From a virus, in UHGV virus genome UHGV-0139594: a stretch of 32,537 nt of DNA; one strand, written 5' to 3'. The first letter of the stretch is position 1; every line of letters begins with the position of its first letter. Position numbers and translations under genes: made by a program. The notes beneath the pieces were generated by a model. The model had not been told where the DNA came from. It saw nothing but the letters and a program-made list of their open reading frames with translations, and ran no database searches. Positions 79-32,537 of this stretch are shown one piece after another.

Positions 79-154
79 GCCGATATAGCTCAGTTGGTAG
101 AGCAGCGCATTCGTAATGCGAAGGTCGTAGGTTCGACTCCTATTATCGGCACCA
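79..154 (+). tRNA. thrW: tRNA-Thr (anticodon CGT), thrW-type; 76 nt with encoded CCA
   Basis: Sequence GCCGATATAGCTCAGTTGGTAGAGCAGCGCATTCGTAATGCGAAGGTCGTAGGTTCGACTCCTATTATCGGCACCA folds as a canonical cloverleaf (acceptor stem GCCGATA/TATCGGC, anticodon CGT at 112..114). Matches my recollection of enterobacterial thrW. Confidence 0.93.
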
Positions 155-168
155 TTAAAATCAATAAG

Positions 169-1332
169 TTACACATCATTAGTACCTTCCTTATTTTTTG
201 ACTGGGACAAATTTGGGACCGATGGGTTCAGGATCGAGTCTATTTGCCGTGCGTGTTCGGTAAGGTGATTAGGTGCAAGGTGAGCATATCGACGAACCAT
301 TTCGATAGACTCCCAGCCTCCCATTTCCTGTAACACTGACAACGGGACTCCGGCTTGAACCAGCCAACTTGCCCAGGTGTGTCTCAAGTCGTGAAATCTG
401 AAATCATCAATACCAGCCCGTCTCAGCGCCGCTTTCCAGGCTGTGTTTGCGTCATACCGCATCTTCCTTACTGTTGGCGCTTTCGTTCCGTCTGGTTTGG
501 TACAGCTTTCCTTGTACACAAATACCCAACGGTGATGATTCCCGATTTGTTTTTTCAATACGCGACATGCAGTATCATTCAGCGCAACGCCAATTGCGCG
601 GTTTGATTTACTCTCTTCCGGGTTTATCCATGCCACCCGGCGCTGCATATCTATTTGTTGCCATTCAAGGTTGATGATGTTCGAGCGTCTTAAGCCTGTT
701 GCCAGTGCAAATTCAACAACAGACTTTAATGGCTCCGGACATTCATCAATCAGCCTTTGTGCTTCATGGGGCTCCAGCCAGCGGATCCGTTTATTCTTTG
801 GTTGAGGCACTTTAATAATTGGTGCCTTATCCAGCATTTTCCATTCACGCTCTGCGGCTCTTAGTAGGGCCTTTATAAATGAAAGATGCGTAGCCTTCGT
901 TGCAACTGACGCTGGTTTTGGCGTGTATTCTGGAACAGGTTTCCCTTTTTTTCTGCATGCTTCTGCCCTGAGTTTCCAGTTTTCCTCATGACGCCGGTTC
1001 GTCATTTTCTGCATTGCTGAATAAATTTTTGATTCAGTAATGTCTCTTAGTTGCATTCCTGCGAAATGTTGAAGCCAGAATCCGATCCGGCTTTTGTCAT
1101 CGTCCAGCGATTTTTTATGTGCTTTCTCTTCAAGCCACCTGACACACGCTTCCTCGAACGTTATATCAGGTATTTCACCAAGTTTGCTGACCCGCCATGC
1201 TTCAGCCTTTAGCTTGTCATGGAGTTCTGTCGCCTGCCTTTTGTCCTTTGTTCCAAGAGACTGTTTAAATCTTTTACCGTTCGGCAATGTGAAACTGGCG
1301 TACCATATTTCACCTCTGCGGAAGAGTGACAT
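169..1332 (-). CDS. int: Tyrosine recombinase / phage integrase, P22 Int-like
   Basis: 387-aa ORF starting [14 protein letters not shown], with C-terminal catalytic region [15 protein letters not shown]...VRRYAHL (R-H-R-Y signature). Lies 15 bp from the tRNA 3' end and is transcribed toward it. Confidence 0.95.
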
Positions 1333-1864: not shown

Positions 1865-2226
1865 TATGCTCCAGCCTCCGGTGCTTTTGGCATTACTGCC
1901 CAGTGAGTGATATTGACGTTTTCAAGGTCCCCGACCTGAAATGTCCACTGCCATTCTCCGGTTTCTTTTTGTCCCCAGGTGTACCAGAGAGAACGCCAGC
2001 CAATTAGCCAGCCTTCTCCGTTAGCATCGAATAACAAAACACTTTCATTTGCTGGTGGCAGTTCAGTTGACACTGGTATTACTTTGTTTTCCTGTGCTGC
2101 ACATTTAGCTTCAAGCGCATCGAATTTACGCACCAGGTATTCAGCATCTGTTTCATTCACTTTCAGATCTCGCGGTACACATCTCCCACGAAGAAACCCT
2201 TCCATTTCGAAAACATTCATGCGCAT
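1864..2226 (-). CDS. Hypothetical early-left operon protein (Eaa-like, 120 aa)
   Basis: ORF coupled to downstream gene; position and size typical of lambdoid ea-region proteins. No firm domain call. Confidence 0.55.
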   Translation of the reverse strand: MRMNVFEMEGFLRGRCVPRDLKVNETDAEYLVRKFDALEAKCAAQENKVIPVSTELPPANESVLLFDANGEGWLIGWRSLWYTWGQKETGEWQWTFQVGDLENVNITHWAVMPKAPEAGA

Positions 2227-2780
2227 TTGCGTAACTCCGATAACTCGTTAAAACGTTCCATAAACATCCCGTAGGCATGGCCCGGTGCCTGTGGAATCAC
2301 TTTGAACATCTCTGTTGCCGGGATACCTTCCAGTACAGGCCAGAAAGAGCCATCATCAAGCCCGAGATCGCGGCGTTCGGTTGCCAGCATAATGAGATCG
2401 GCATATTTCACTGGCGTGCTCATAACAGGAGGTAACCCGTATTTCTCACGGATTACGGCGTCTATTTTTTCTTCCATCCGTTTATAGTCAGGAAGAAGTC
2501 GTTTCAGTGGTGCGGGGATGTCCTAGCAATATGCTTCTGTTGCATCATGCATTAAAGCTTCAAAAGCAAATTCCTGTGGCACCAGCTGGCTGCAAAGCAC
2601 CGCATGTTGGGCGACACTGTAGAAGTGTGAAAGATGTCCTGCAAAGCGACAGATATTTGAAAGGGAAACCGCGATATCGTTAATAACGATGTCGTCTTTA
2701 TTTATCCTGTCATAATAAAAATGCTTCCCGGAAAAAGTTTTAATAAATGACATTTTGTTCTCCACGTATATGCGCTGCAC
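2217..2780 (-). pseudogene. HD-domain phosphohydrolase (YfbR-like 5'-deoxynucleotidase family) interrupted by a single in-frame amber codon
   Basis: Track ORFs 2523..2780 and 2217..2477 are in the same frame, separated only by TAG at 2523..2525. Read-through translation gives ...LMHDATEAYC*DIPAPLKRLL..., reconstituting the HD...E...GDhPxPxK motif across the stop. Confidence 0.6.
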
Positions 2781-2789
2781 CGCGCTGAA

Positions 2790-3260
2790 TTCGGGTAAAA
2801 GGAAGCCCTCACCGTCCGGCGATTATTGAGTCAATTACATTTCCATAAATGCCCCCGTAGGGGCGGTTAGTTTCTCCACAAAACAGAGAAGAACACCTGC
2901 GGTGGCAGCCGCCCGGATGGATTGGGTTATGAGCCCGTCGTCCGGTGATGCTCTTCTCTGTTTTGTAAAAAGGACGGTACCAGCCGGAAGCAAGGGTACA
3001 AGCTGGTACCGCCAAGACTACACACAGCATAAAGTTGTGGTGCCGGGTGCCTCCCGGTGCCTGGCGAAGGTTGCACACCAGGCGGGTGGGTATCCACAGA
3101 AGGTCGACTGTCAGCCTCAACCTTAACCCGCGTGCGCTGAGCCGCATTCACCACAACGCTAAGGATTCTCTCTGGTTGAAAATACTTAGCTGTTATGTGC
3201 CTGTCTTTTCACCACTTCAGGCTCGGTGGTATCCTTTTAAGCCCGTATACATAAAAGGAA
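2790..3260. other. GC-rich, ORF-poor segment with nested inverted repeats; candidate structured RNA or degraded insert
   Basis: No convincing ORF; several overlapping junk ORFs in multiple frames. Long-range complementary segments: ACAAAACAGAGAAGA/TCTTCTCTGTTTTGT, GGTACCAGC/GCTGGTACC, GTTGTGGTG/CACCACAAC, CCCCGTAGGGG. Confidence 0.25.
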
Positions 3261-16496: not shown

Positions 16497-17344
16497 GCCG
16501 GAAATCTTACCCCAACGTAAATGCAGCCAATCAGTATGCCCGTCATGTCGTGCGCGGAAAGATTGTGGCCTGCCAGTTTGTGATTCAGGCCTGCCAGCGC
16601 CATCTTGATGACCTGATGGCGGAAAAAAGTAAGTCGTTTCGTTACCGCTTCGACAAGGACCTGGCTGAACGGGCCGCGAAATTTATTCAGCTGTTGCCGC
16701 ACACCAAGGGTGAGTGGGCATTCAAACGGATGCCCATCACGCTGGAGCCGTGGCAGCTATTTGTGATCTGCTGTGCGTTTGGCTGGGTCAATAAAGGCAC
16801 CCGGTTGCGCCGCTTCCGGGAGGTGTATACCGAAATCCCCCGTAAGAACGGCAAATCAGCAATCTCTGCCGGTGTTGCCCTGTATTGTTTTGCCTGTGAT
16901 AACGAGTTTGGCGCGGAAGTGTATTCCGGTGCCACGACAGAGAAACAGGCGTGGGAAGTCTTTCGCCCGGCGCGACTGATGTGTAAACGCACACCCATGC
17001 TGACGGAAGCGTTCGGGATTGAGGTTAACGCCTCAAACATGAACCGTCCGGAGGATGGCGCGCGGTTTGAACCGCTGATCGGTAACCCCGGTGATGGTTC
17101 ATCACCCCACTGTGCGGTGGTGGATGAATATCACGAGCACGCCACCGATGCGCTTTATACCACGATGCTTACCGGGATGGGGGCGCGACGTCAGCCACTG
17201 ATGTGGGCCATCACCACCGCCGGGTACAACATTGAGGGGCCGTGCTACGACAAGCGGCGGGAAGTTATCGAGATGCTCAACGGTTCGGTAACCCTGCGCA
17301 CATTATCGGTTATGGATCGGTGTTTGACTGTCGTTCTGAGCTGA
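16493..17344 (+). pseudogene. Terminase large subunit, truncated after the ATPase domain
   Basis: Walker B-like AVVDEYHEH and ITTAG motif present, but ORF is only 283 aa. Its last ~36 codons are an out-of-frame read of the prohead protease gene. No nuclease domain and no portal gene follow. Confidence 0.65.
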
Positions 17345-21113: not shown

Positions 21114-22344
21114 CACCATTCCGTCGAATACGCTGGTTCCGCTGTTTTATGCGGAAATGGATAACTCGGCGGCGAATACTGCACAGGACAGCGGGGCATC
21201 GTTGCTGATTGGTCACGCCAATAACGGTGCAGAGATTGTTGCCAACAGTCTGGTGCTGATGCCGTCGGCAGACTATGCACGCCAGATTTGTGGTGCGGGA
21301 AGTCAGCTGGCGCGTATGGTCGAGGCTTATCGCCAGACCGATCCGTTTGGCGAGCTGTATGTGATTGCCGTTCCGGAAGCCACAGGCGCGGCGGCAACGG
21401 TTACGCTGACGGTGACCGGAGCAGCAACCGAAACCGGCACGGTGAATGTTTATGTGGGACGTACCCGCGTGCAGGCACCGGTGACCAACGGCGATAACGT
21501 CACGACGATTGCCAGCAGTATCCAGGATGCCATCAATGCCGTTCCGGCCCTGCCGTTTACGGCCTCATCTTCGGCAGGCGTGGTCACGCTGACCGCGCGT
21601 CATAAGGGGCTTTGCGGGAATGAAATTCCTGTCAGCCTCAATTACTACGGCTTTGGTGGGGGCGAAGTGCTGCCAGCGGGCGTACAGATTGCCGTGGCGA
21701 CGGGGAGCGCCGGAACGGGCGCTCCGGTTCTCACCGGTGCGGTGGCTGCAATGGCGGATGAGCCGTTTGATTATATTGGCTTGCCGTTCAACGACACGGC
21801 CTCCGTTAACACGCTGGTGACCGAGATGAACGATACCAGCGGTCGCTGGAGCTATGCGCGTCAGCTGTATGGTCATGTGTATACGGCAAAGATCGGCACG
21901 CTGTCAGAACTGGTGACCGCAGGTGACCAGTTTAACCAGCAGCACATTACCCTGGCGGGATACGAAAAAGACACTCAGACGCCAGCCGACGAGCTGGCGG
22001 CAAGCCGTACCGCCCGCGCAGCGGTGTTTATTCGCAACGATCCGGCACGTCCCACGCAGACCGGTGAGCTGGTGGGTATGCTGCCTGCACCGAAGGGGAA
22101 ACGGTTCACGATGACCGAGCAACAGACCCTGCTGTCTCATGGCGTGGCAACGGCGTATGTCGAAAGTGGGGTAAACGCTCTACGTGGCATACACAACGAT
22201 TTACAAGAGCTAAACGAAAGGCTTTACCGTGGTTTTAGCCTGACCGTCGAGGAAGTCGAGATCACCTTGTCCGGCATATTCAGATTCAACTTTCAGGCCC
22301 AGCAGCGCGGTAATCAGATCCACTTCAACACGGTTTGCGTGTGA
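21097..22344 (+). CDS. Contractile tail sheath protein (Mu gpL-like), probably 3'-truncated
   Basis: MTISFNTIPSNTLVPLFYAEMDNS ... GSQLARM ... VTLTARHKGLCGNEIPVSLNYYG match Mu-like sheath signatures. Protein is 415 aa against an expected ~490, and the sheath-like sequence seems to stop near 22150. Confidence 0.7.
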   Translation: MTISFNTIPSNTLVPLFYAEMDNSAANTAQDSGASLLIGHANNGAEIVANSLVLMPSADYARQICGAGSQLARMVEAYRQTDPFGELYVIAVPEATGAAATVTLTVTGAATETGTVNVYVGRTRVQAPVTNGDNVTTIASSIQDAINAVPALPFTASSSAGVVTLTARHKGLCGNEIPVSLNYYGFGGGEVLPAGVQIAVATGSAGTGAPVLTGAVAAMADEPFDYIGLPFNDTASVNTLVTEMNDTSGRWSYARQLYGHVYTAKIGTLSELVTAGDQFNQQHITLAGYEKDTQTPADELAASRTARAAVFIRNDPARPTQTGELVGMLPAPKGKRFTMTEQQTLLSHGVATAYVESGVNALRGIHNDLQELNERLYRGFSLTVEEVEITLSGIFRFNFQAQQRGNQIHFNTVCV

Positions 22345-22716
22345 ACGGTAATGAGCCTCAGAGAAATCATTAACCGCTACCAGCATAGCATCAGAACGGT
22401 TTGGATATTGGCGGCTGTATTGTTCCAGGTCACGAGAAGTAACAGCGTTAATACTGCCGACGTGTTTCATCTGGAAAAGTTTGTTTGACCATTCCTGACG
22501 TTTAGAGGCGTTCCAGTCGCTTTGAGCGTAAGGCGAGGTTTCCCCAGCTACCTGCACAAACTGATCAATCAGGTCGGTAAGAAGAATGCTGTTTTCTGTA
22601 TGATATTGCACATCGAACAGATCGAGATTAGTAATCAGGGTATTAAGTGCATTCTCATAAGCAAAAGGAGTTACTACCGCAGTATTAACGCCAAAATATG
22701 TTGATAAATCATTCAT
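22210..22716 (-). CDS. Hypothetical protein (168 aa), last gene of a minus-strand operon
   Basis: ORF in a 3-gene minus-strand cluster; its 3' end overlaps the sheath ORF tail. No confident homology. Confidence 0.45.
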   Translation of the reverse strand: MNDLSTYFGVNTAVVTPFAYENALNTLITNLDLFDVQYHTENSILLTDLIDQFVQVAGETSPYAQSDWNASKRQEWSNKLFQMKHVGSINAVTSRDLEQYSRQYPNRSDAMLVAVNDFSEAHYRSHANRVEVDLITALLGLKVESEYAGQGDLDFLDGQAKTTVKPFV

Positions 22717-22730
22717 TATTATTTTCCTTG

Positions 22731-23114
22731 TTAAGTCGTAGGGATCGCAAGTTCTTCATAACTAGCAATTACAAAGCCGAGAGATTGCAGTTTTGCAATA
22801 ACACTTGCCTTTTCCATGCTGTTAAATTCAATCCCATCTTCAGCCAGAATAACGAAAGTAGGATGTGCAACCACTACGCTTTCCTGTCCTTCATAAGCCG
22901 GTTCAACTACTACGTGAGCAATATCAGATGCGGTTGTTGCTTTGGTGCCATCGGCTTTCAGCAAAGCCCCGACAATAAGATCGTCAGTGAGAGGTGAAGC
23001 CAGTTTGACGAGGCGATCTTGCAGCACCGGATCAGCAGCGTAAGCTACTACCTTACAGCGTGAACGGGAGTTATCCGCATTCACTACTTTTAATTTTCCA
23101 TATGGGTTAGCCAT
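22731..23114 (-). CDS. Hypothetical protein (127 aa)
   Basis: ORF in the same operon. Weak resemblance to head-decoration-type proteins (ADGTKATTASDIAHVVVE), not reliable. Confidence 0.45.
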   Translation of the reverse strand: MANPYGKLKVVNADNSRSRCKVVAYAADPVLQDRLVKLASPLTDDLIVGALLKADGTKATTASDIAHVVVEPAYEGQESVVVAHPTFVILAEDGIEFNSMEKASVIAKLQSLGFVIASYEELAIPTT

Positions 23115-23118
23115 AAGA

Positions 23119-23316
23119 TTATTTTCCTTTCAGTTGTTTAATTTTAGATTTAAGGGCATCAGCAAGACTAACCGCATCAGCCGATTTAAATAATTGAGCA
23201 GTGGTAGAACGAAGACTTTCGGGAGTAACTCCCAACAGTGCGGCAACCTTAATGAGGTTTTCATCACTAACAATCATCGTTTCCCCGTCTTTGCTGATAA
23301 TCATTTCTTGTTTCAT
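23119..23316 (-). CDS. Hypothetical small protein (65 aa)
   Basis: Start taken at the internal ATG (MKQEMIISKDG) with an AGGAA-type RBS; first gene of the cluster. Confidence 0.4.
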   Translation of the reverse strand: MKQEMIISKDGETMIVSDENLIKVAALLGVTPESLRSTTAQLFKSADAVSLADALKSKIKQLKGK

Positions 23317-24300
23317 AAATAACGTTCCTGTTAGTGCCAGACAAATAAAAAGCCCCAATGCCGTAAGAGGTTAATTCTGACCAGCAAAGGGGCTTTAACG
23401 TGCGGGCAATTACATAATTGATAAGTTAAACTATAAGAGGATTAAACATATCAGCAAATACACTTTTTAAATATACTTGATGATATGCTTAAAGGGTGAA
23501 TAGATACTCCTGAAAACATGCTCTTAGGAAAACATGCGGAATCAATCAGGAATATCTATTCGGGGCGCGGTGGCCAACCGCTATCTTTCATGGTGTGGAT
23601 GCACCAGTCAGATTTTAAGGAATCACTATTCCAATCTACTCACAGATTAAATTTTTAATAATGATTAACTACACCAACAGTAATCTACCGTTTCAGAAAA
23701 TCGTTTTTACAACCAAAGCTTATAGATCCGCATTCTATAAAACCCGTTTTGCTATCAATATTTCCAAAGTTTATTGCACCATTCTTAGCTAAACTCTCTC
23801 TGCTTGCGGCTAACGCTATGCAGATGATTGTTTTTGACAACAACTTAATAGATTGTTCTGTTACTAACTTCTGTCATTAAATAATAGTTTAATGATGTTA
23901 GTAAATAGTTATAAAATATAACTATCAGTGTAAGGCTCTTTAATATTTTCTGACAAAATAAGGAGCTTTAGGATAAGCATAGATGAAAAATAAGAGCGGG
24001 AAGGGCAAGGAGATAACACCTACCCGCTTTTATCAAAATTAAGCACAATGCCTAACAACATTCATCAACACAACGTAGAAACAATCAACAATCAAAGAGG
24101 GAGTTATGATTATTCTAAAACTTCTTGAGAGATGGAAGGTAATATTTGTTAGAGGTTAATGCCACTCAACCTTTGAGGCTATCACCTTCCATATGCAGGG
24201 ATTTATGACAGTAGAAGGATTAACACCAGTCAAAACCTTTTTATCTACCCCTAATATCATTATATAATGAAATCGTTATAAATGCAAATGATTTTCATTA

Positions 24301-24609
24301 TCATTTAGAGAAAATAGCACTTTTTGCTAAATCGTCTACTAATTGCTGAATCTCTTCACTTGCAGCCTTTAACGTGCTGGCGGTGTCTGTGATGGTTTGA
24401 GTGCACATCTTGGCATCGTCCTCAATTAGCTCTAAATCGCTCACCAGAGAGATAAAATCGTCAAGGCTTACATTCACCTTCATTAAGCTAATAACGCATT
24501 GAGAGAGCGTGTAATCGCATAAATCTGAATAGGCTTGATTTATTCTTGTTTGTAGTGAGATAGTCAGATCTAAAAGTTGTTCCATTGCATTGCTAATATC
24601 TTCTTCCAT
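24301..24609 (-). CDS. Hypothetical acidic protein (102 aa)
   Basis: AAGGAG RBS; start overlaps upstream stop (TAATG); AT-rich. Confidence 0.5.
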   Translation of the reverse strand: MEEDISNAMEQLLDLTISLQTRINQAYSDLCDYTLSQCVISLMKVNVSLDDFISLVSDLELIEDDAKMCTQTITDTASTLKAASEEIQQLVDDLAKSAIFSK

Positions 24610-24854
24610 TATGCGGCTTCTCCTTGTAATGCATCATTAATCATATTCAATACGATGTTAAAAGGTGTCTTGAGCGTCAGCACTTCATCACGATAACGCT
24701 CTAATGCTTCGTAGTCTTCTGTTTCTTTTGCCAGTCGGATTAACTCAGCATAGTTTTTTGCATCAGACAGGATCATCTGAAATAATTGTGTTTCTTGAAT
24801 ATAGCCAATCATTATTTTTCCTTTTTCGAATATTTTCATTGGGCGCTTATACAT
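24609..24854 (-). CDS. Hypothetical protein (81 aa or shorter)
   Basis: Coupled to downstream gene; alternative start at internal Met with AAAGGA RBS. Confidence 0.45.
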   Translation of the reverse strand: MYKRPMKIFEKGKIMIGYIQETQLFQMILSDAKNYAELIRLAKETEDYEALERYRDEVLTLKTPFNIVLNMINDALQGEAA

Positions 24855-24869
24855 ACACCCATCATTTTA

Positions 24870-25253
24870 TTAGTTAGAACGTTTGTTAGAAGCTAATGTA
24901 TCTTCTAAATGAGCCATCAGATCGACTTCCGATGCACCACCTACACAATTATTGAAAGCGTTAAATCCCAAAAAATGATGATAGGAGCTAAACCCTAAAA
25001 GTTGCCAACGCTTCAGAGTGCCATCAGAAATTATTGTTTGTTTTCTTGTTCTTGGGCGAAAGTAAACGCCTGGCATTGACTGGATTATTTCTAATTCTTT
25101 ATTACTTAATTCAGGGGATTCTATTTCAAGAATAAATATTATCTCTTCCCCTGGAATTTCATTATTGGTATGTGTCGGTGGACGTTGTCTTTTTGAATTG
25201 AAATTACTGTTTTTTTCAATACGTTTTAAGTTATTCTTTTTCTTTCTTCCCAT
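24870..25253 (-). CDS. Hypothetical protein with basic N-terminus (127 aa)
   Basis: AAGAGGG RBS; N-terminal Lys/Arg-rich segment MGRKKKNNLKRIEKN. Confidence 0.5.
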   Translation of the reverse strand: MGRKKKNNLKRIEKNSNFNSKRQRPPTHTNNEIPGEEIIFILEIESPELSNKELEIIQSMPGVYFRPRTRKQTIISDGTLKRWQLLGFSSYHHFLGFNAFNNCVGGASEVDLMAHLEDTLASNKRSN

Positions 25254-25627
25254 TTTCCCTCTTTTTATGTGGATTATAAAAACTTAATGCCATTGTTACG
25301 ATGAATATCGCCATAAATGCATTTGCCATATGTATTGCCCGATCTGTTGTTATTGATTGTTTGTGAGAAACAATTCAAAATCTTTGTTTAATTTCAAAAG
25401 ACGAAATGTAGTGCTGTTAATCCCTTCATAATCCAGCACACCGAACGATGTAAAATGATTTAACCAACAATTTCTGATAGTGCGCTGTAGCCGCCTAAAC
25501 TACAAAAGCTAACCACTGTCGGTGGTGAAAACTCTATTTCCAAAATAGCTTTTAAAATGTTGTATCCGCTTTCAGTTATTTCAATAGTTTTGTTTCCTAT
25601 AGTGATGTTATAAGTCATTTATTCTCC

Positions 25628-26221
25628 TTAGAAGGGTAGTGAATCATATATTGTGCTCTCACTTTTGAGATCAATTATCAAAGAGTCAAAATCATTTTCA
25701 CAAAGATAGATATTCTTTGAATCTAATGCTCGTTTTACAAAATCTTCTGTTTCTTCGTGCGGTGGTTTCTTCTTATCAAGGGAAAGAAGCCAAGTAAAAA
25801 TTTCGGGCCGCTCAGGGAACTCTGGCTCTTGTGTTTCTTCTTCAACGATGATTTCGGAAACATTCAATATTTCATTAGATTCGTCTTCTTTCTCAGAAGG
25901 ATCAGGTAGTGATGATTCTCCTTTTGGAATATCAAGCACTCGATAAAGGTTAGAGCTTCCTGGTCGTGCATCTTTTATAATTAATCCCATTTCGAGCAAT
26001 TTCTTAACCCTTTCTTCTGCTGCTCTTGGTGTTATGCCAAAAACATCGCCTATCTTAGCGTAAGAGGGAAATGCACGATCAAACCCTCTCAGATAGCAGT
26101 AAAGGTTTTTAGCACTATCTGTAAATTTATGCCCGTTTACTTGGCTTATTTTTAGAATCCACATAGGAACTTTTACAAATTGTTCTTCATTAATCATTAA
26201 AAATCTCCTTGATGTAATCAC
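25628..26221 (-). CDS. Rep-like winged-helix protein (putative replication initiator of an iteron replicon)
   Basis: N-terminal wHTH (NLYCYLRGF...SYAKIGDVFGITPRAAEERVKKLLEMGLI) resembling replication-initiator DNA-binding domains; acidic C-terminal half; iteron array about 1.2 kb upstream. Confidence 0.55.
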   Translation of the reverse strand: MITSRRFLMINEEQFVKVPMWILKISQVNGHKFTDSAKNLYCYLRGFDRAFPSYAKIGDVFGITPRAAEERVKKLLEMGLIIKDARPGSSNLYRVLDIPKGESSLPDPSEKEDESNEILNVSEIIVEEETQEPEFPERPEIFTWLLSLDKKKPPHEETEDFVKRALDSKNIYLCENDFDSLIIDLKSESTIYDSLPF

Positions 26222-26250
26222 GCTCTACGGCGCTACTATGGTGATAAAAA

Positions 26251-26421
26251 TCACTTGCTTTTGTTTGAGAGTGTTTCAGCCTCTCTTTTCAACATATCAA
26301 GAATGTAATCTGTAACAGTGATACGTTTACTTCTGGCTTCTTTAAACAACACCTGAAATACTTCATCAGGAATATGAAAGCAAGTGCGTGGTTGTCTTTT
26401 CTTTTCTGTAGTTTCGCTCAT
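26251..26421 (-). CDS. Small ribbon-helix-helix-like protein (56 aa)
   Basis: MSETTEKKRQPRTCFHIPDEVFQVLFKEARSKRITVTDYILDMLKREAETLSNKSK; GGAGAAGGAGAA RBS; below track cutoff. Confidence 0.5.
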   Translation of the reverse strand: MSETTEKKRQPRTCFHIPDEVFQVLFKEARSKRITVTDYILDMLKREAETLSNKSK

Positions 26422-26442
26422 AGTTTTCTCCTTCTCCTGTTA

Positions 26443-26625
26443 TTATTCTTTCTCTGCTTCTGCCTTACGCAGTTCATCAATAATTTTTAGTGCATCGTCA
26501 AAGCATTTTTCACGCTCTGGATAACCTCTACTCCTTGCCATATTACGATTCATTACTATTTGATGTCGTGTTAGCTCACCTTTTTTAAATGCCTCTGCGA
26601 CGTGTTTCGGTGTAAACCATTTCAT
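26443..26625 (-). CDS. Hypothetical small basic protein (60 aa)
   Basis: ORF immediately upstream of the RHH gene on the same strand. Confidence 0.45.
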   Translation of the reverse strand: MKWFTPKHVAEAFKKGELTRHQIVMNRNMARSRGYPEREKCFDDALKIIDELRKAEAEKE

Positions 26626-27454
26626 AAAAACTCCTTATTCAGTTAAAAGAAAAAAAACACCTTGCAAGCCTGACGGCTTCAAAGTGCATTGATTTTGATT
26701 ATTTAGAGAAGAATGTTTTTCTGTCCCTCTAATACCTATTATTACATATAAAGAAACATTTGTCAATACCCTTTTCGCAAAAATACGATCTTTTTCAGCA
26801 GCTTAAAATTTTTCTTAGCAATTCGTGCTCTTATGAGTACTCCTATTCTTCCTTATTCTCTAAAACGCTCTCTGACGAGGTTTTGATAAATACAATACAT
26901 TCCCTTATGTAGAGGCTGTTTAGCTCGCCAGAGGCTTATTTAAGCGGTAGAAACTTATTTAACCTTCAACTACTAAAACCATTCTTTCTTTTTTGTTTGT
27001 TGTTGGTTGTTGTCTGTGTCTATGTGCTAACATCGCTAATGCGTAGCACACAAGGTTATTGCACTCGTCAGAGTATTGCACAATAGATTTTCTCTTAAAT
27101 AGATTGATGATCGTTAGATTGGCGTAAGCCTCATCAATGGAACTATTGAAGCGCACAGCGCATAGACACTAACAACCATTCGCTTACGCTCAGGTTATTG
27201 CACATAGTAGATTACATATTCGTTGTGAGCGGCATTAGCGAACATAGATCTACTAACTAACATCAACAAACAAAAACTATGTGTTATGACAAGCAGTCTA
27301 ACGACTAACACTCTAACTTGTGCAAGGTTCTGGCGAATGCCAATAGATTAAGGGATAGTCGTTAGACTCCCCTAACGGGTATCCCTATAATTATTCTTTA
27401 AAGATAAAGGAATTTATAAAAGATAATTTAATTGTAGTTTGATAGTTGATCTAA

Positions 27455-27600
27455 TAGGTAACAAAATTCTGTAGGGGTGGCTAACAGTTTTCTGTGGGGG
27501 TGTCTAACATAATTCTGTTAGGGTTGGGGTAACAGTTTTCTGTTAGGGTGCATATTTCTTTAAAAGTTAAGGATAACAGAATTCTGTGGGGGTAGCTCAC
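27455..27600. repeat. Iteron array: five copies of a ~23-bp unit (AACAnnnTTCTGTnGGGGTnG)
   Basis: AACAAAATTCTGTAGGGGTGG, AACAGTTTTCTGTGGGGGTG, AACATAATTCTGTTAGGGTTGG, AACAGTTTTCTGTTAGGGTG, AACAGAATTCTGTGGGGGTAG at roughly 23-bp phasing. Confidence 0.7.
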
Positions 27601-28709
27601 AGTGACCTACCGTTACATCCATTTATCACATAACATCTGTGCAATGATCTTCTAAAAGTGTTTCTTGCTACCAAAATTAAACATCTAAAACAGGCTTAAA
27701 TTCAATGTAATTGATGATTAATCCCTGTGTAATTCCTACGTAAAAATTCAATGAAAAGTAGCTTAAAAGTGCAATTCTTACTTTCTTCACTTTTACATCA
27801 CTTTCGCAAAGCCTTGTGTAATGCGGCTACAGCGCACTATCAGAAATTGTTGATTAAAAATCAATCTATTATTTGTCGAACAAGTTTCTTTCACGTGTTG
27901 AAAATTTATGTTTAAATTTGCTTTCAATCTTTAATGTGCAATCACTATCAACATAAAAATAAAAAACCTTCTATTATATTTCATAGCATACAAAAGTCAA
28001 TAGAAGCCCTCTCGTGCTCCTACGTAAAAAATCCACCACTTTTCCCCTGATACATCAACTCAAGGCGTTCCATGTGTTCCTTAGTGCATATTACGATTAT
28101 TATGTTAAATGGATTTTGGCCCATATTTTGACCTGCACCCGCATAAACACTGGTTTCATCGCTTACAGCCCTTGTGAGACGTGGTGCTGTTTCTAGCATC
28201 TGATCCGACATAAAACCGATCATTCTCGTGTTTAGTGAAAGTTTAGTGAGAGACATTACAGAAAGGCTTTCTGTGTAATGATTTAATAGGTAAAAACGAT
28301 GTTGATTACGCAAGAAAATTCCTTGCTGATATTTGGGGATTCTGGATTTTCCAGATCGGGGGGCGGTGAAAATCGCGTTAAGCACTTCTCGCAATCTAGC
28401 CATAAGGGAAGGGATAAAGGTATTTAGATGTATTTATAGCTATTTATGGCTATTTATTTTTTATTTACCTTAATTTAAAAATAGCCTTATAAATCAATAA
28501 GATACAGGACTATCTGTTTATATTTTAATCAATTAAATCAAGTTTAATACCCTTAAACCACCTGAAAATAACCTTAAATACCCCAATAATTAATTTTAAC
28601 GATTCCTGTGCTCTCTCCTACTTTGCAAAAAGGCAAAAAAAGCCCATAGAGGCACAAAAATATTAAAACCAATAACTCAATAATGCCTCTACAAGAGCTT
28701 CTCTAACTG

Positions 28710-29261
28710 TTATTTTTGATTGAGCTTACATCGATCCCATTGTTCTGTCGTTCTTGTGATACGATCGCTTATTGCAAAATTTAATAGCCAAGAATCATAA
28801 GCATAAACCTTGCTTTTATCATCTGCCATCATAAACTTGCCGTTAGCATTCAGTTTTGGCGATATCAAATATGTTCCATTTAATCTGTTAGCCTTGAAGC
28901 TATCTGCATATAAAGTTACTTGTGCGTATCCCTGAACACGTAATGCCCCTAAACGTCCGTTTTCGATTGATGCAATAGAGTATTGGCAAAGATAATTTTT
29001 GGCAGCAGGAGTCGTTTTCACTCCTTCAGTTTTTCGTGAATTATTTGATTGCGAGCTTCGAATAGAGGATGAAGGATAAGAGTATGAATGATTTTTATAA
29101 GATGAAGGGGCATAAGAGCCAATCCGGCACGTCTTACCAACAGCTATACACGAGTTACCACAAGGTATTCCTTTTTTGCAGTTTTTAGCAACTGCGGTAG
29201 AAGTTCCCCCTACAAACAACGTTGTAAAAATCATCATCCTCACAAATGCAGACCTGCGCAT
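28710..29261 (-). CDS. Secreted Cys-rich protein of unknown function (183 aa)
   Basis: N-terminal signal peptide (MMIFTTLFVGGTSTAVA), Cys cluster CKKGIPCGNSCIAVGKTC, Ser-rich linker, ~100-aa C-terminal domain; AT-rich. Confidence 0.55.
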   Translation of the reverse strand: MRRSAFVRMMIFTTLFVGGTSTAVAKNCKKGIPCGNSCIAVGKTCRIGSYAPSSYKNHSYSYPSSSIRSSQSNNSRKTEGVKTTPAAKNYLCQYSIASIENGRLGALRVQGYAQVTLYADSFKANRLNGTYLISPKLNANGKFMMADDKSKVYAYDSWLLNFAISDRITRTTEQWDRCKLNQK

Positions 29262-29655
29262 ATAACCTCCCTTTTTAGATTATTCTTATGCTATACACTT
29301 GCTTAAAAAAATAAAAGTGCCCTCTAACCTTTATCGTTCTCCATCACAATTTGAGAAGTAAGAGCAGCAACCTCAAGCGATGATCACGTTTGCGCCGATT
29401 TCAGAGAAAAAGACAGTAACTGAACTCACTATGAAGGCTAAACGTATCTTTACACTTGATGAAAACGTTCAAAAAACAACCTAACCCCAAAATTCAACAA
29501 ATAACAACATATTGTTTTTAAAAGAAAATTAAATCTACATCAAATATTGGTTGACGTAGATTGAGGTGAATAGTAGACTATTAGGGTAAATTGCCATTCT
29601 TGCAACATCATTTAATGCATGTTCTAATCCTCCTATCCCAAAACCGGAGGAAGTT

Positions 29656-29814
29656 ATGCATTTACTTTCAAAACATCTTCACACTATTCACTTTCTCGTT
29701 ATTGATGTATTCATTGTGGCTATTAGTTACCGCATTTGCATCGCTTCCAGTGAAGAGATGGACGCTGTTGCAATTATTGCTCAAGCAATGGCGATGTTAA
29801 CTAAACGACTTTAA
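29656..29814 (+). CDS. Hypothetical small hydrophobic protein (52 aa)
   Basis: GGAGG RBS 5 nt before ATG; converges on a hairpin shared with the next small gene. Confidence 0.35.
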   Translation: MHLLSKHLHTIHFLVIDVFIVAISYRICIASSEEMDAVAIIAQAMAMLTKRL

Positions 29815-29880
29815 TAATTTCACTATCAGGCGCATAAACACATCTTTGATCGCTGGATGTGTTATGCGCCTACTGGTGAT

Positions 29881-30033
29881 TCAATCCTTAAGCCATTTCA
29901 ACTCACTAAGGAGTTTTCTTTCTTCGTTCTCTCTCTGTTTACGCTCTAGCCAGGCTTTTCCTTCTGGCGTAGGCAGGAACTTACGAGCGTGAATCTTGCG
30001 GTTATTACGTTTGATAGCTGCAATGTTTTTCAT
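29881..30033 (-). CDS. Hypothetical small basic protein (50 aa)
   Basis: AGAGG RBS; MKNIAAIKRNNRKIHARKFLPTPEGKAWLERKQRENEERKLLSELKWLKD. Confidence 0.35.
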   Translation of the reverse strand: MKNIAAIKRNNRKIHARKFLPTPEGKAWLERKQRENEERKLLSELKWLKD

Positions 30034-30639
30034 CGTGTGCCTCTGTATTCATATGAAAATTAACAAGTTACATACTACACAGGGAGACTACGCATAAAAC
30101 ACAATACAAGTAAAGATACATTTTCAAGACAATAGGAGCCATAAAGCGCCTTTGATGGTTATACCAAAAAATAAGCGCCGTAGGCGTATCCACTAAAAAG
30201 GGCTTTTTCACAAAAGCTATGAAGTCTTAGCAGTTCTTCTCTTATCAGGCACCCGTTGTACTCCGGTGGACGAAACCGTGCTAGAGCTTGATTCTTTCCC
30301 GATCAAGTTAGGTTTTGAAGAGGTGGGCTTTAATCCACTATTGCACTTAAAACTCTTCCCATCATTTAGCCTGTTTATCCTCTGCAACGTCTCACGACGT
30401 GTAGCATCATTGGACACCGCGCCAGGTGTGGAACATCTTGCTAAGAGTTTTGGTAGAAGGTTTAGAGACGGTGGCACGTCTTCCAGCTTCAAAGGAACTT
30501 GTTACGAGGTTGAGCCTGGGAACTACTCGCCCATACGTGTTAAACTACCAAAAGCCCATAACAACGTATAGGCGTTTGTAAGTGATAACAGAAGATACAA
30601 TTTCTTAGAGAAGTTAAGCTAAGTTATTGATTTTCTTGA

Positions 30640-30685
30640 TGGTGCCGATAATAGGAGTCGAACCTACGACCTTCGCATTACGAAT
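30640..30685 (-). repeat. Inverted 46-bp copy of the thrW 3' end (anticodon loop to CCA): att core remnant
   Basis: TGGTGCCGATAATAGGAGTCGAACCTACGACCTTCGCATTACGAAT is the exact reverse complement of tRNA positions 31..76 (window 109..154). Confidence 0.85.
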
Positions 30686-30889
30686 TATAAGAATCCGCTT
30701 CTAATTCAAAGCATTACCCCATCAACACTGCGCTCACACGTCCCGCCACATCAAAACATGTAAAGCCTTGCAAGCCATTGTGAGGCCTTATGTGTCTCAG
30801 TTTTGTCCCACTACGACCTGCACAGAAAATAAGAAAATAGCGGTGATATCAAACAGTACAGAAGTCTTTTTTCTTTCAAATGGAGAAAC

Positions 30890-31168
30890 TGATTAACCCG
30901 TTTAATTGTACTCCTCATGGGCAATCAGCAGTCCTCAGAGTAATGGAATGGCAGAAAGGTTCGTGAAAACGATGAAGGAAGACTACATCGCGTTCATGCC
31001 GAAACCGAATGTAAGAACGGCATTGCATAATCTTGCAGTGGCGATCGAACATTACAATGGAAACCATCCGCACAGTGCGTTGGGTTATCGCTCTCTGCGA
31101 GAATATCGACGTCAGCGGGTAACGTTAACTTAAGATACACCCCCTGTCTGGAAATAAGGGGGCAAGAA
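30890..31168 (+). mobile_element. IS2-like (IS3 family) remnant: 3' end of transposase OrfB plus terminal repeat
   Basis: [59 protein letters not shown] resembles the IS2 OrfB C-terminus; downstream TGTCTGGAAATAAGGGGGCAA resembles the IS2 right end. No upstream transposase sequence. Confidence 0.6.
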
Positions 31169-31174
31169 CAATGA

Positions 31175-31927
31175 TCAGATTCCCTGGTGAGTAAGAATTT
31201 TACTTTCTGAACTCCTCTGAGAGTATTGACTTGGAGAAATACCAAAATAACGTCTAAATACATAAGTAAAGTATGAGACACTGGCATAACCACAGACCTT
31301 AGCTACTTTACTAATAGGATAACAACGAGTGCTGAGTAAATATTCAGCCATTTGCATCCTCTCATCAAGTATGATCTTACTGAATGATACCCCCTCTTCT
31401 TTCAATTTCCTCTTTAGTAAACTTTCGCTGAGATATAATCTTGATGATATATCCTTAAGACGCCATGGTGCAGATAAATCCGTATGAATAATCGTTTTAA
31501 CTTTAGCCCCTGTGCTTTTCAAACATCCAAACAGAAATACTCCAAATTGTTTTTCAGAAGAAAATGCAGAGAGACATGTAAAAGCAATAGACTCATCAAA
31601 AATTTCTATGTATTCAGCACAGTGATTAGCCCAACTAATTAATCCTTTAATTAAACTGAAGTCAGCAAAGTTTATTTTTAAATAAGATGGATATTCCCTA
31701 CAATCAGAAATATCCCTTAAGTTATTAGCTTTCAAATAGCGACTAATAAACTCAGCGCCAAAATCCGCCACTATCACTCTTTCAGGATACGTCAGGAAAA
31801 AATCTCTAGAGCTAGAGTCGACAAGTACAGATGAACCTCTCTCCAGAAACACAATCTCTTTTCCTAAATAAACATCAAAGGACTCCAAAATCAATATAAC
31901 TGAACATGTAGTTGCCATATCATCCAC
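31175..31927 (-). CDS. AraC-family transcriptional regulator, AppY/Rns-like
   Basis: C-terminal double HTH (WRLKDISSRLYLSESLLKRKLKEEGVSFSKIILDERMQMAEYLL...VAKVCGYASVSYFTYVFRRYFGISPSQY); AT-rich gene with AT-rich upstream region. Confidence 0.8.
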   Translation of the reverse strand: MDDMATTCSVILILESFDVYLGKEIVFLERGSSVLVDSSSRDFFLTYPERVIVADFGAEFISRYLKANNLRDISDCREYPSYLKINFADFSLIKGLISWANHCAEYIEIFDESIAFTCLSAFSSEKQFGVFLFGCLKSTGAKVKTIIHTDLSAPWRLKDISSRLYLSESLLKRKLKEEGVSFSKIILDERMQMAEYLLSTRCYPISKVAKVCGYASVSYFTYVFRRYFGISPSQYSQRSSESKILTHQGI

Positions 31928-32410
31928 CCAATTTAACTGAAACTAGGATGAAGTATATGCATATAAAGTTCACTTTGCCAAACTTCAGTATAAAAAACCA
32001 CATAAAAAATAGGGTGTGATAAAAAATACCGTAACAATAAAGCAAAGGATTATAAATTCCGTTACAGTTACAAATGATACTCAAGAAACAATTCCTTAGG
32101 AAAAACTTATTTACAGCCAATAAGTAAGACACTTATATGATATCAAGTTTTCATAAAACATAACTAGGCTAAATAGCTTCGCCTAATACCGCTACACTTT
32201 TGCCAGCCCATGTGTGCCTCCGGGTATTGACCCCTTCTCTACGCAACTTCAGTTCCCACCACCAACTTTGCGGCAGCTTTGTAGGATCAATGTCTAAAAG
32301 AATAATGGTGACCGATAAGAAAACGACTGAATAACTGCAGATTTTCGCTCGAAATCTTCCTGTCAGATCCATAGCGAATCAAGTGCTGAATGTCACAGTA
32401 TCGAACAGAA

Positions 32411-32537
32411 GGTAATGACTCCAACTTATTGATAGTGTTTTATGTTCAGATAATGCCCGATGACTTTGTCATGCAGCTCCACCGATTTTGAGAACGACAG
32501 CGACTTCCGTCCCAGCCGTGCCAGGTGCTGCCTCAGA
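32411..32537 (-). mobile_element. IS1, partial (terminal inverted repeat and insB 3' end), cut by window edge
   Basis: GGTAATGACTCCAACTTATTGATAGTGTTTTATGTTCAGATAATGCCCGATGACTTTGTCATGCAGCTCCACCGATTTTGAGAACGACAGCGACTTCCGTCCCAGCC matches the IS1 end as I recall it. Confidence 0.85.

Follow-up and report, generated by a model that had tools for sequence, protein, structure and literature searches.

How is an in-frame stop codon to be read when the gene around it is otherwise intact? This question is raised by an HD-domain gene in the viral genome UHGV-0139594, the whole 32,537-nt stretch of which is referred to here as the window. A preliminary description of this DNA noticed two open reading frames separated by an amber codon within the catalytic motif, and offered two readings, a recent nonsense mutation or a gene expressed only with amber suppression. 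Here, we identify the gene as yfdR and report that it was most probably inactivated by a recent C-to-T change at its only Dcm site, a recurrent mutational hotspot, under relaxed selection. Both the cause, namely the single Dcm site of the gene, and the recurrence are absent from the preliminary description.

A single amber codon interrupts an otherwise intact yfdR gene

Translation of the minus strand of window 2217-2780 yields one 188-codon frame with a sole internal stop (...LMHDATEAYC-stop-DIPAPLKRLLPDYKRMEEK...), confirming the earlier proposal that the two ORFs, given in the mechanical ORF list as 2523..2780(-) and 2217..2477(-), are one frame interrupted by TAG alone at 2523..2525. The coordinates were right, and the minus strand of the gene went unmentioned. 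By matching annotated yfdR genes, we assigned the start to the ATG at 2753, which delimits a yfdR pseudogene of 178 codons at 2217..2753 (minus strand, TGA at 2217..2219) with the in-frame amber at codon 77 (2523..2525, minus strand, reading CTA in plus-strand coordinates).

Megablast of the region found yfdR in 2,971/5,426 complete E. coli genomes, in which the copies are annotated as "yfdR: 5'-deoxynucleotidase" and the best identity is 99.8% over 564 nt; none of the 5,426 complete E. coli genomes holds an exact match to the window yfdR region. The nearest intact allele, encoding WP_000008235.1 (locus L001, strain ECCHD184), shows 1 mismatch in 564 nt, at window 2525, where one C to T converts CAG (Gln77) to TAG. 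This base is nt 229 of the gene, on the minus strand, and the change reads C to T on the coding strand and G to A on the plus strand. The lesion is thus a single base in a gene that is otherwise intact, as first described, and the ortholog comparison then recommended for finding the replaced residue gives Gln77 rather than Gly. The window copy matches the YfdR orthologous group at near-identity over its full length and with like flanking genes, and it lacks the uninterrupted 178-codon frame of that group through the TAG at codon 77. It is therefore a predicted pseudogene copy of the YfdR family.

Between the repaired protein and Atu1052, an HD-domain protein (PDB 2GZ4), there is an alignment over residues 19-175 (E = 1.5e-12), which places the metal-ligand pattern at His50, His69-Asp70 (HD dipeptide codons at 2544..2549, minus strand) and Asp119. 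Glu73 and Asp78 belong to the HD..E...D.P.P.K block; Asp78 is the conserved Asp directly after the stop (2520..2522, minus strand, a codon that contains gene nt 233|234), and Gln77 aligns with the Gly of "GD". As the preliminary description had it, the amber falls inside the HD motif block, between the HD..E residues and the conserved Asp. The HD..E...D.P.P.K part of the block drawn there stands and its "GD" does not, YfdR having Q-D where YfbR and Atu1052 have G-D. The label "YfbR-like" fared similarly, in that the gene does encode an HD-domain protein and the assignment to YfbR was loose: the repaired protein scores 23.6 bits against PF12917 (curated cut-off 25.9) and 19.9 bits against NF003009, the YfbR equivalog model (cut-off 122). 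Although YfdR has the H..HD..E...D.P.P.K..D layout in common with YfbR (PF12917, NF003009) and Atu1052 (2GZ4), it differs from YfbR in falling below these curated thresholds and in carrying Gln at position 77 instead of the Gly of "GD", and it is not a YfbR equivalog. YfdR also has nucleotide affinities much below those of YfbR (PMC4776307).

The amber distributes these residues over two fragments. The N-terminal fragment ORF (76 aa, 2523..2753, minus strand) retains His50, His69-Asp70 and Glu73 and is without Asp78 and Asp119. Asp119 is instead carried by the C-terminal fragment ORF (86 aa from Met93, 2217..2477, minus strand), whose translation is putative and which has no HD motif. The H...HD...D motif of the HD superfamily is therefore not found on one polypeptide, the His and HD residues and Asp119 lying on separate fragments. 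Because the 76-aa product is without Asp78 and the fourth metal ligand, Asp119, truncated YfdR should be inactive.

The gene lies in a decaying SfV-like prophage

The window yfdR sits in a defective SfV-like prophage at thrW. Host DNA in the window amounts to 78 nt plus thrW, a tRNA-Thr(CGT) gene that forms the prophage attachment site (79..154, plus strand), followed by a tyrosine integrase gene of the SfV/P22 type (169..1332, minus strand); in relatives, proA lies on the far side of thrW. The phages closest to the window are SfV, SfII and SfIV. Within the lambdoid prophage layout, yfdR occupies the int-proximal early-left region, with yfdS and yfdT as neighbours and, in relatives, also yfdP and yfdQ. 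Relative to strain STEC799, an internal deletion of ~2.35 kb, with its junction at 17286..17294 and a short microhomology (TA/ACC) there, has taken out the portal gene together with the 3' part of the large terminase gene, and SfV-like homology ends at 22173, where the prophage is truncated inside the tail-sheath gene. Given that the host prophage is already defective, yfdR would be decaying under relaxed selection.

The window gene shares its name, its length of 178 aa and its neighbourhood with YfdR of K-12, a DnaA-binding HD-domain protein encoded by prophage CPS-53/KpLE1 (PMC4776307), and K-12 matches a 100-nt probe spanning the site at 97% identity. Unlike the K-12 gene, the window copy is cut at codon 77, and its prophage is not CPS-53 but the SfV-like one at thrW.

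Two further features of the window are recorded here. The remaining 10 kb (22173-32537) has few long ORFs and matches other E. coli regions annotated as a baseplate protein, many hypothetical proteins and an autotransporter; in some genomes, these matching regions adjoin an integrase and tRNA-Thr. Furthermore, the ORF at 2809..3147 contains a second Dcm site, at 3053-3073 (minus strand), which likewise has the xxC-CAG-Gxx register (..NLRQAPGG..). The equivalent site reads CTAGG in two IMG/VR loci, and the RefSeq relatives L001, L002, L013, L014 and L186, all inspected, annotate a stretch overlapping 3053-3073 as a "frameshifted hypothetical protein" pseudogene.

The stop lies at the only Dcm site of the gene

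The stretch 2522..2526 reads CCAGG in intact alleles and CTAGG in the window, and is the sole CCWGG of the gene. In the ancestral context, TGC-CAG-GAC, the mutated base is the inner cytosine of CCAGG (nt 228-232), so that the change at nt 229, CCAGG to CTAGG, is the inner C-to-T change of a Dcm hotspot. Single-base changes that create a stop in yfdR number 66, eight of which are transitions (in 7 codons), and among those eight nt 229 alone falls within a Dcm site. Since the base is the inner C of a Dcm site, C229T matches the product expected from deamination of 5-methylcytosine.

E. coli is generally dcm+, and we assume that the site is methylated in this host. We infer that deamination caused the lesion by the following route: Dcm would methylate the inner cytosine of the yfdR CCAGG, the 5-methylcytosine would deaminate to thymine and leave a T:G mismatch, and a mismatch missed by Vsr before replication would turn CAG into TAG. 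Vsr very-short-patch repair normally restores the C after deamination of 5-methylcytosine, and escapes give CTWGG (PMC2715241, PMC3527292). Hypermutability of this kind would account for the independent appearance of one and the same stop codon in several lineages of prophage. The identical C-to-T change would also result from a replication error; of the two causes, deamination is the likelier, given the Dcm context.

An enrichment control drew on near-identical pairs among 141 IMG/VR loci, unselected for yfdR lesions. Dcm 5-methylcytosine positions make up 0.72% of C/G contexts in this control and carry 2 of 37 rare C>T/G>A changes against 0.27 expected, an enrichment of about 7-fold (Poisson P about 0.03) that counts two events. 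The value compares with an 8-fold figure attributed to Cherry 2018 in a passage of PMC9520237.

The same stop recurs on different yfdR haplotypes

The exact 76-aa truncated product is present on 35 contigs, one of them a 4.99-Mb chromosome, drawn from NCBI, ENA and Logan assemblies; within the assembly collection it occurs in 97 blocks. At the nucleotide level, the TAG is carried by at least six yfdR haplotypes, which lie 0, 7, 8, 16, 37 and 37 substitutions from the window. The TAG carriers among the 10 matches listed are clearly different prophages with three integrase types and attachment sites (some with an SfV/P22-type integrase at thrW-proA, some with a 390-aa integrase bearing a different arm-binding domain, and one with an intE/xisE-type integrase adjoining icd), a diversity that is inflated in appearance, as the loci were picked via the truncated product with diverse contexts favoured.

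For four of the TAG haplotypes there is a CAG twin, the two agreeing at every position of the gene except nt 229. The window and L001 show 1 difference in 5153 nt, and L006 (TAG) and L014 (CAG, strain 1190) show 2 differences in 5337 nt; L003 (TAG) differs within the gene from L013 (CAG, ATCC 11775) at nt 229 alone, as does L011 (TAG) from L036, L044 and L054 (CAG). Each TAG allele with a CAG twin is thus a tip variant, with no deeper clades, and this bears out the "recent nonsense mutation" of the preliminary description for every TAG allele tested. For the haplotypes of L004 and L008, the data contain no exact CAG twin, the nearest being 3 to 9 differences away, and these two could therefore be recombinants of another TAG allele.

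Parsimony on a neighbour-joining tree built from 83 haplotypes requires six changes for the six with T229, a result that is supportive in kind, because recombination makes common polymorphisms homoplasic too. Recombination is also the basis of an alternative that we consider very improbable, in which the amber arose once and was then passed between prophages. In favour of a single origin are the extensive mosaicism of lambdoid prophages, the strong homoplasy that the tree shows for common yfdR polymorphisms, and the large part of the window haplotype found in L004, L008 and L011. However, polymorphic nt 222, 240 and 243 flank nt 229 at distances of 7, 11 and 14 nt, and the haplotypes of the window, L003 and L006 are distinguished by nt 222 on one side and by nt 240 or 243 on the other, which would confine a transferred tract to less than about 18 to 21 nt, three times over. 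Moreover, these three alleles each have a gene-identical CAG twin, two of them identical over ~5 kb. Since a single origin needs three gene-conversion tracts of less than about 20 nt, the haplotypes compared indicate at least three independent origins of the TAG, and probably more.

The complementary product at the same site recurs as well. The bottom-strand change G231A (CAG to CAA, silent, equivalent to window 2523) is found in 4/141 IMG/VR loci (L056, L073, L079 and L122) on at least three backgrounds, and one of these loci differs from its twin at nt 231 alone. The sole nonsense allele of yfdR found away from the Dcm site is a true internal amber at Gln60 (CCGCAGG to CCGTAGG) in L166 (3001-3180), on a 4.0-Mb contig. 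Recurrence at the Dcm site is therefore above that at comparable non-Dcm sites, as seen in the twins, in G231A, in the single occurrence of the Gln60 amber and in the roughly 7-fold enrichment. An apparent "Gln60 stop" product (P0006) on 22 contigs was set aside, 9/10 of its listed places being contig ends and L166 alone being real.

Rarity of the amber allele and alternative explanations

The amber fragment is found on 35 contigs, compared with >1,000 contigs for each of two intact alleles checked. Codon 77 in the 141 IMG/VR loci, which were retrieved by 30-mers excluding the site, is CAG in 135, CAA in 4 and CAT in 1, with no TAG among them, and in the last of the 141, L083, a deletion junction falls at codon 77; the exact TAG-containing 35-mer has 0 matches in IMG/VR. 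Among complete-genome records, 2419/2425 match without interruption across the site, and in the complete E. coli genomes the TAG allele is never the best match and no carrier was found. A census by the C-terminal fragment ORF is dominated by deletions and IS-truncated remnants and is no measure of TAG frequency. Rarity and tip position together point to a recurrent, short-lived mutation that would be neutral or mildly deleterious, and not to a maintained feature.

These frequencies bear on whether loss of YfdR might instead be adaptive, with the hotspot supplying variants and selection favouring inactivation of a DnaA-binding prophage protein. K-12 YfdR binds DnaA domain I, and raised yfdQRST copy number inhibits replication initiation (PMC4776307). 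The many kinds of yfdR lesion (the amber, a -1 frameshift, a truncated form that runs out into foreign sequence, and deletions) are also in keeping with selection for loss. Even so, we think this quite unlikely: intact alleles dominate the contig counts, codon 77 is sense in 140/141 IMG/VR loci with one deletion-truncated copy and no TAG, nearly all complete-genome records are uninterrupted across the site, and the TAG alleles are tips rather than deeper clades. The same rarity weighs on the second reading of the preliminary description, by which the gene would be functional through amber suppression or read-through, Gln being inserted and wild-type protein restored. Gln, the ancestral residue of yfdR, is what supE (glnV) suppressors and near-cognate tRNA-Gln insert at UAG, and the frame downstream of the TAG is intact. 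This intactness is uninformative, because the TAG alleles are all of very recent origin. Orthologs do not conserve the TAG (0/141 IMG/VR loci), and the only tRNA that ARAGORN finds in the window is the tRNA-Thr(CGT) of thrW, so that expression dependent on suppression is unsupported; to our knowledge, natural E. coli isolates rarely carry amber suppressors. We hold this reading to be even less credible than a single origin of the allele.

Least credible of all is an error of sequencing or assembly, a thought invited by the coverage of the window contig (ENA ERZ1744290, metagenomic), which is only ~10.7x, and by the failure to find the allele in complete RefSeq E. coli genomes. Against this, the independent metagenome ERZ28623851 contains L021, which matches the window without a difference along 3261 nt, TAG included, and the exact 76-aa product recurs on the 35 contigs. 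With this identity across samples, assembly error is ruled out, and a recent, repeated C-to-T change at the Dcm site is the reading that we retain.

Relation to known mutational hotspots

The yfdR amber is most probably a fresh instance of a mechanism known since the 1970s. Amber hotspots due to 5-methylcytosine deamination at Dcm sites are known from lacI and lambda cI, with Coulondre et al. 1978 reportedly among the sources. Lieb 1991, another source on such hotspots, appears in the reference list of PMC2715241. Like yfdR, the lacI and lambda cI hotspots have CCAGG in the xxC-CAG-Gxx register, in which an inner C to T converts Gln to amber, and they show the same independent recurrence together with the complementary G-to-A change at the same site. 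Whereas the lacI and cI cases were selected in the laboratory, the yfdR amber occurs as natural variation of an accessory prophage gene across public assemblies, where methylation is assumed. It thereby offers a clean natural illustration of how one methylated cytosine may give the same nonsense mutation repeatedly in unrelated prophages. When an enterobacterial gene that is otherwise intact contains an in-frame stop, the first question should be whether the stop lies in the Dcm register xxC-CAG-Gxx or CC-TGG, with recoding or suppression considered afterwards. As a cryptic-prophage pseudogene, the window yfdR is of little weight in itself, and the part that could repay work is the deletion endpoint described below.

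Other lesions cluster around the Dcm site

Large deletions run into yfdR and stop within it in many degraded prophages. Eight of ten large-deletion ends inside yfdR fall at one position, 1-2 bases 3' of CCAGG. The endpoint is nt 233|234 (window 2520|2521) in L016, L019, L022, L023, L024, L181 and L083, and nt 234|235 in L020 alone. The ten ends were counted after excluding IS-associated and scaffold joins; the look-up via a free-standing C-terminal ORF detects ends within ~72 nt (gene nt 205-276), and L083 came from the separate IMG/VR scan. Were the ends even over 72 nt, eight of ten in one 2-nt bin would have a chance of ~1e-11, for a bin that was chosen post hoc. The deletion partners differ, being phage genes of lambda-like, HK97-like and Mu-like modules, and the microhomology between recovered parental partner sites and the CAT at nt 234-236 is 0-3 nt. 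One junction is in a finished genome (AP022095.1), and several were seen in more than one sample. To judge from the sequences compared, the eight deletions are independent events in at least eight lineages.

Several explanations of the endpoint were tried and rejected. Assembly chimeras do not account for it, as the joins are without a long shared k-mer, occur in multiple samples and include the finished genome AP022095.1; nor does a secondary integrase site, att-core similarity being at shuffle level, or IS-mediated adjacent deletion, no IS being left at the joins. A general role of Dcm sites in deletions was likewise set aside, the two junctions of the window itself having no CCWGG nearby. 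A partner-side pattern ("C at -4") holds in 7/8 cases, is post hoc and is broken by L181. The junctions of L178, L179, L180 and L184 are scaffold concatenations from one pseudo-chromosome series, with N at the join in L179 and L180. The cause of the endpoint may be a candidate Vsr-linked break or a candidate site-specific nuclease that cuts A|CATCC.

A further lesion within the Dcm site is a -1 C frameshift (CCAGG to CAGG, equivalent to window 2525-2526) with the product ...EAYCRTSPHH-stop. It is found in L182, L183 (1224-1500) and L185. The two backgrounds concerned differ in their integrases and account for 7 and 3 contigs.

Six bases of yfdR thus hold the recurrent C229T, the recurrent silent G231A, the -1 C frameshift and the fixed endpoint of eight deletions. 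It is conceivable, though in our view unlikely, that this Dcm site is a multi-lesion fragile point beyond a base-substitution hotspot, at which, for example, nicking by Vsr, or some other site-specific cut, at or next to the deaminated Dcm site would leave a one-ended break that is then resolved by microhomology joining. If the clustering were mechanistic, cytosine methylation and its repair would directly drive prophage inactivation by deletion.

Elsewhere in the gene, artificial joins were noted at nt 159|160 (L178, L184) and at nt 243|244 (with N there) in pseudo-chromosome assemblies of the PCJK, PCLW and PCKD series. A 61-aa product (P0004), on 31 contigs from sources including E. coli O121:H19, is that of a yfdR diverging after codon 53 (...NRPGNPGD-stop), and its tail, by its resemblance, may represent read-through into the left end of IS629. 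Truncations of yfdR also adjoin IS elements of the IS3 family (L015 and L018, nt 255) and IS1 (L176, nt 214), and IS insertion is another route by which yfdR decays.
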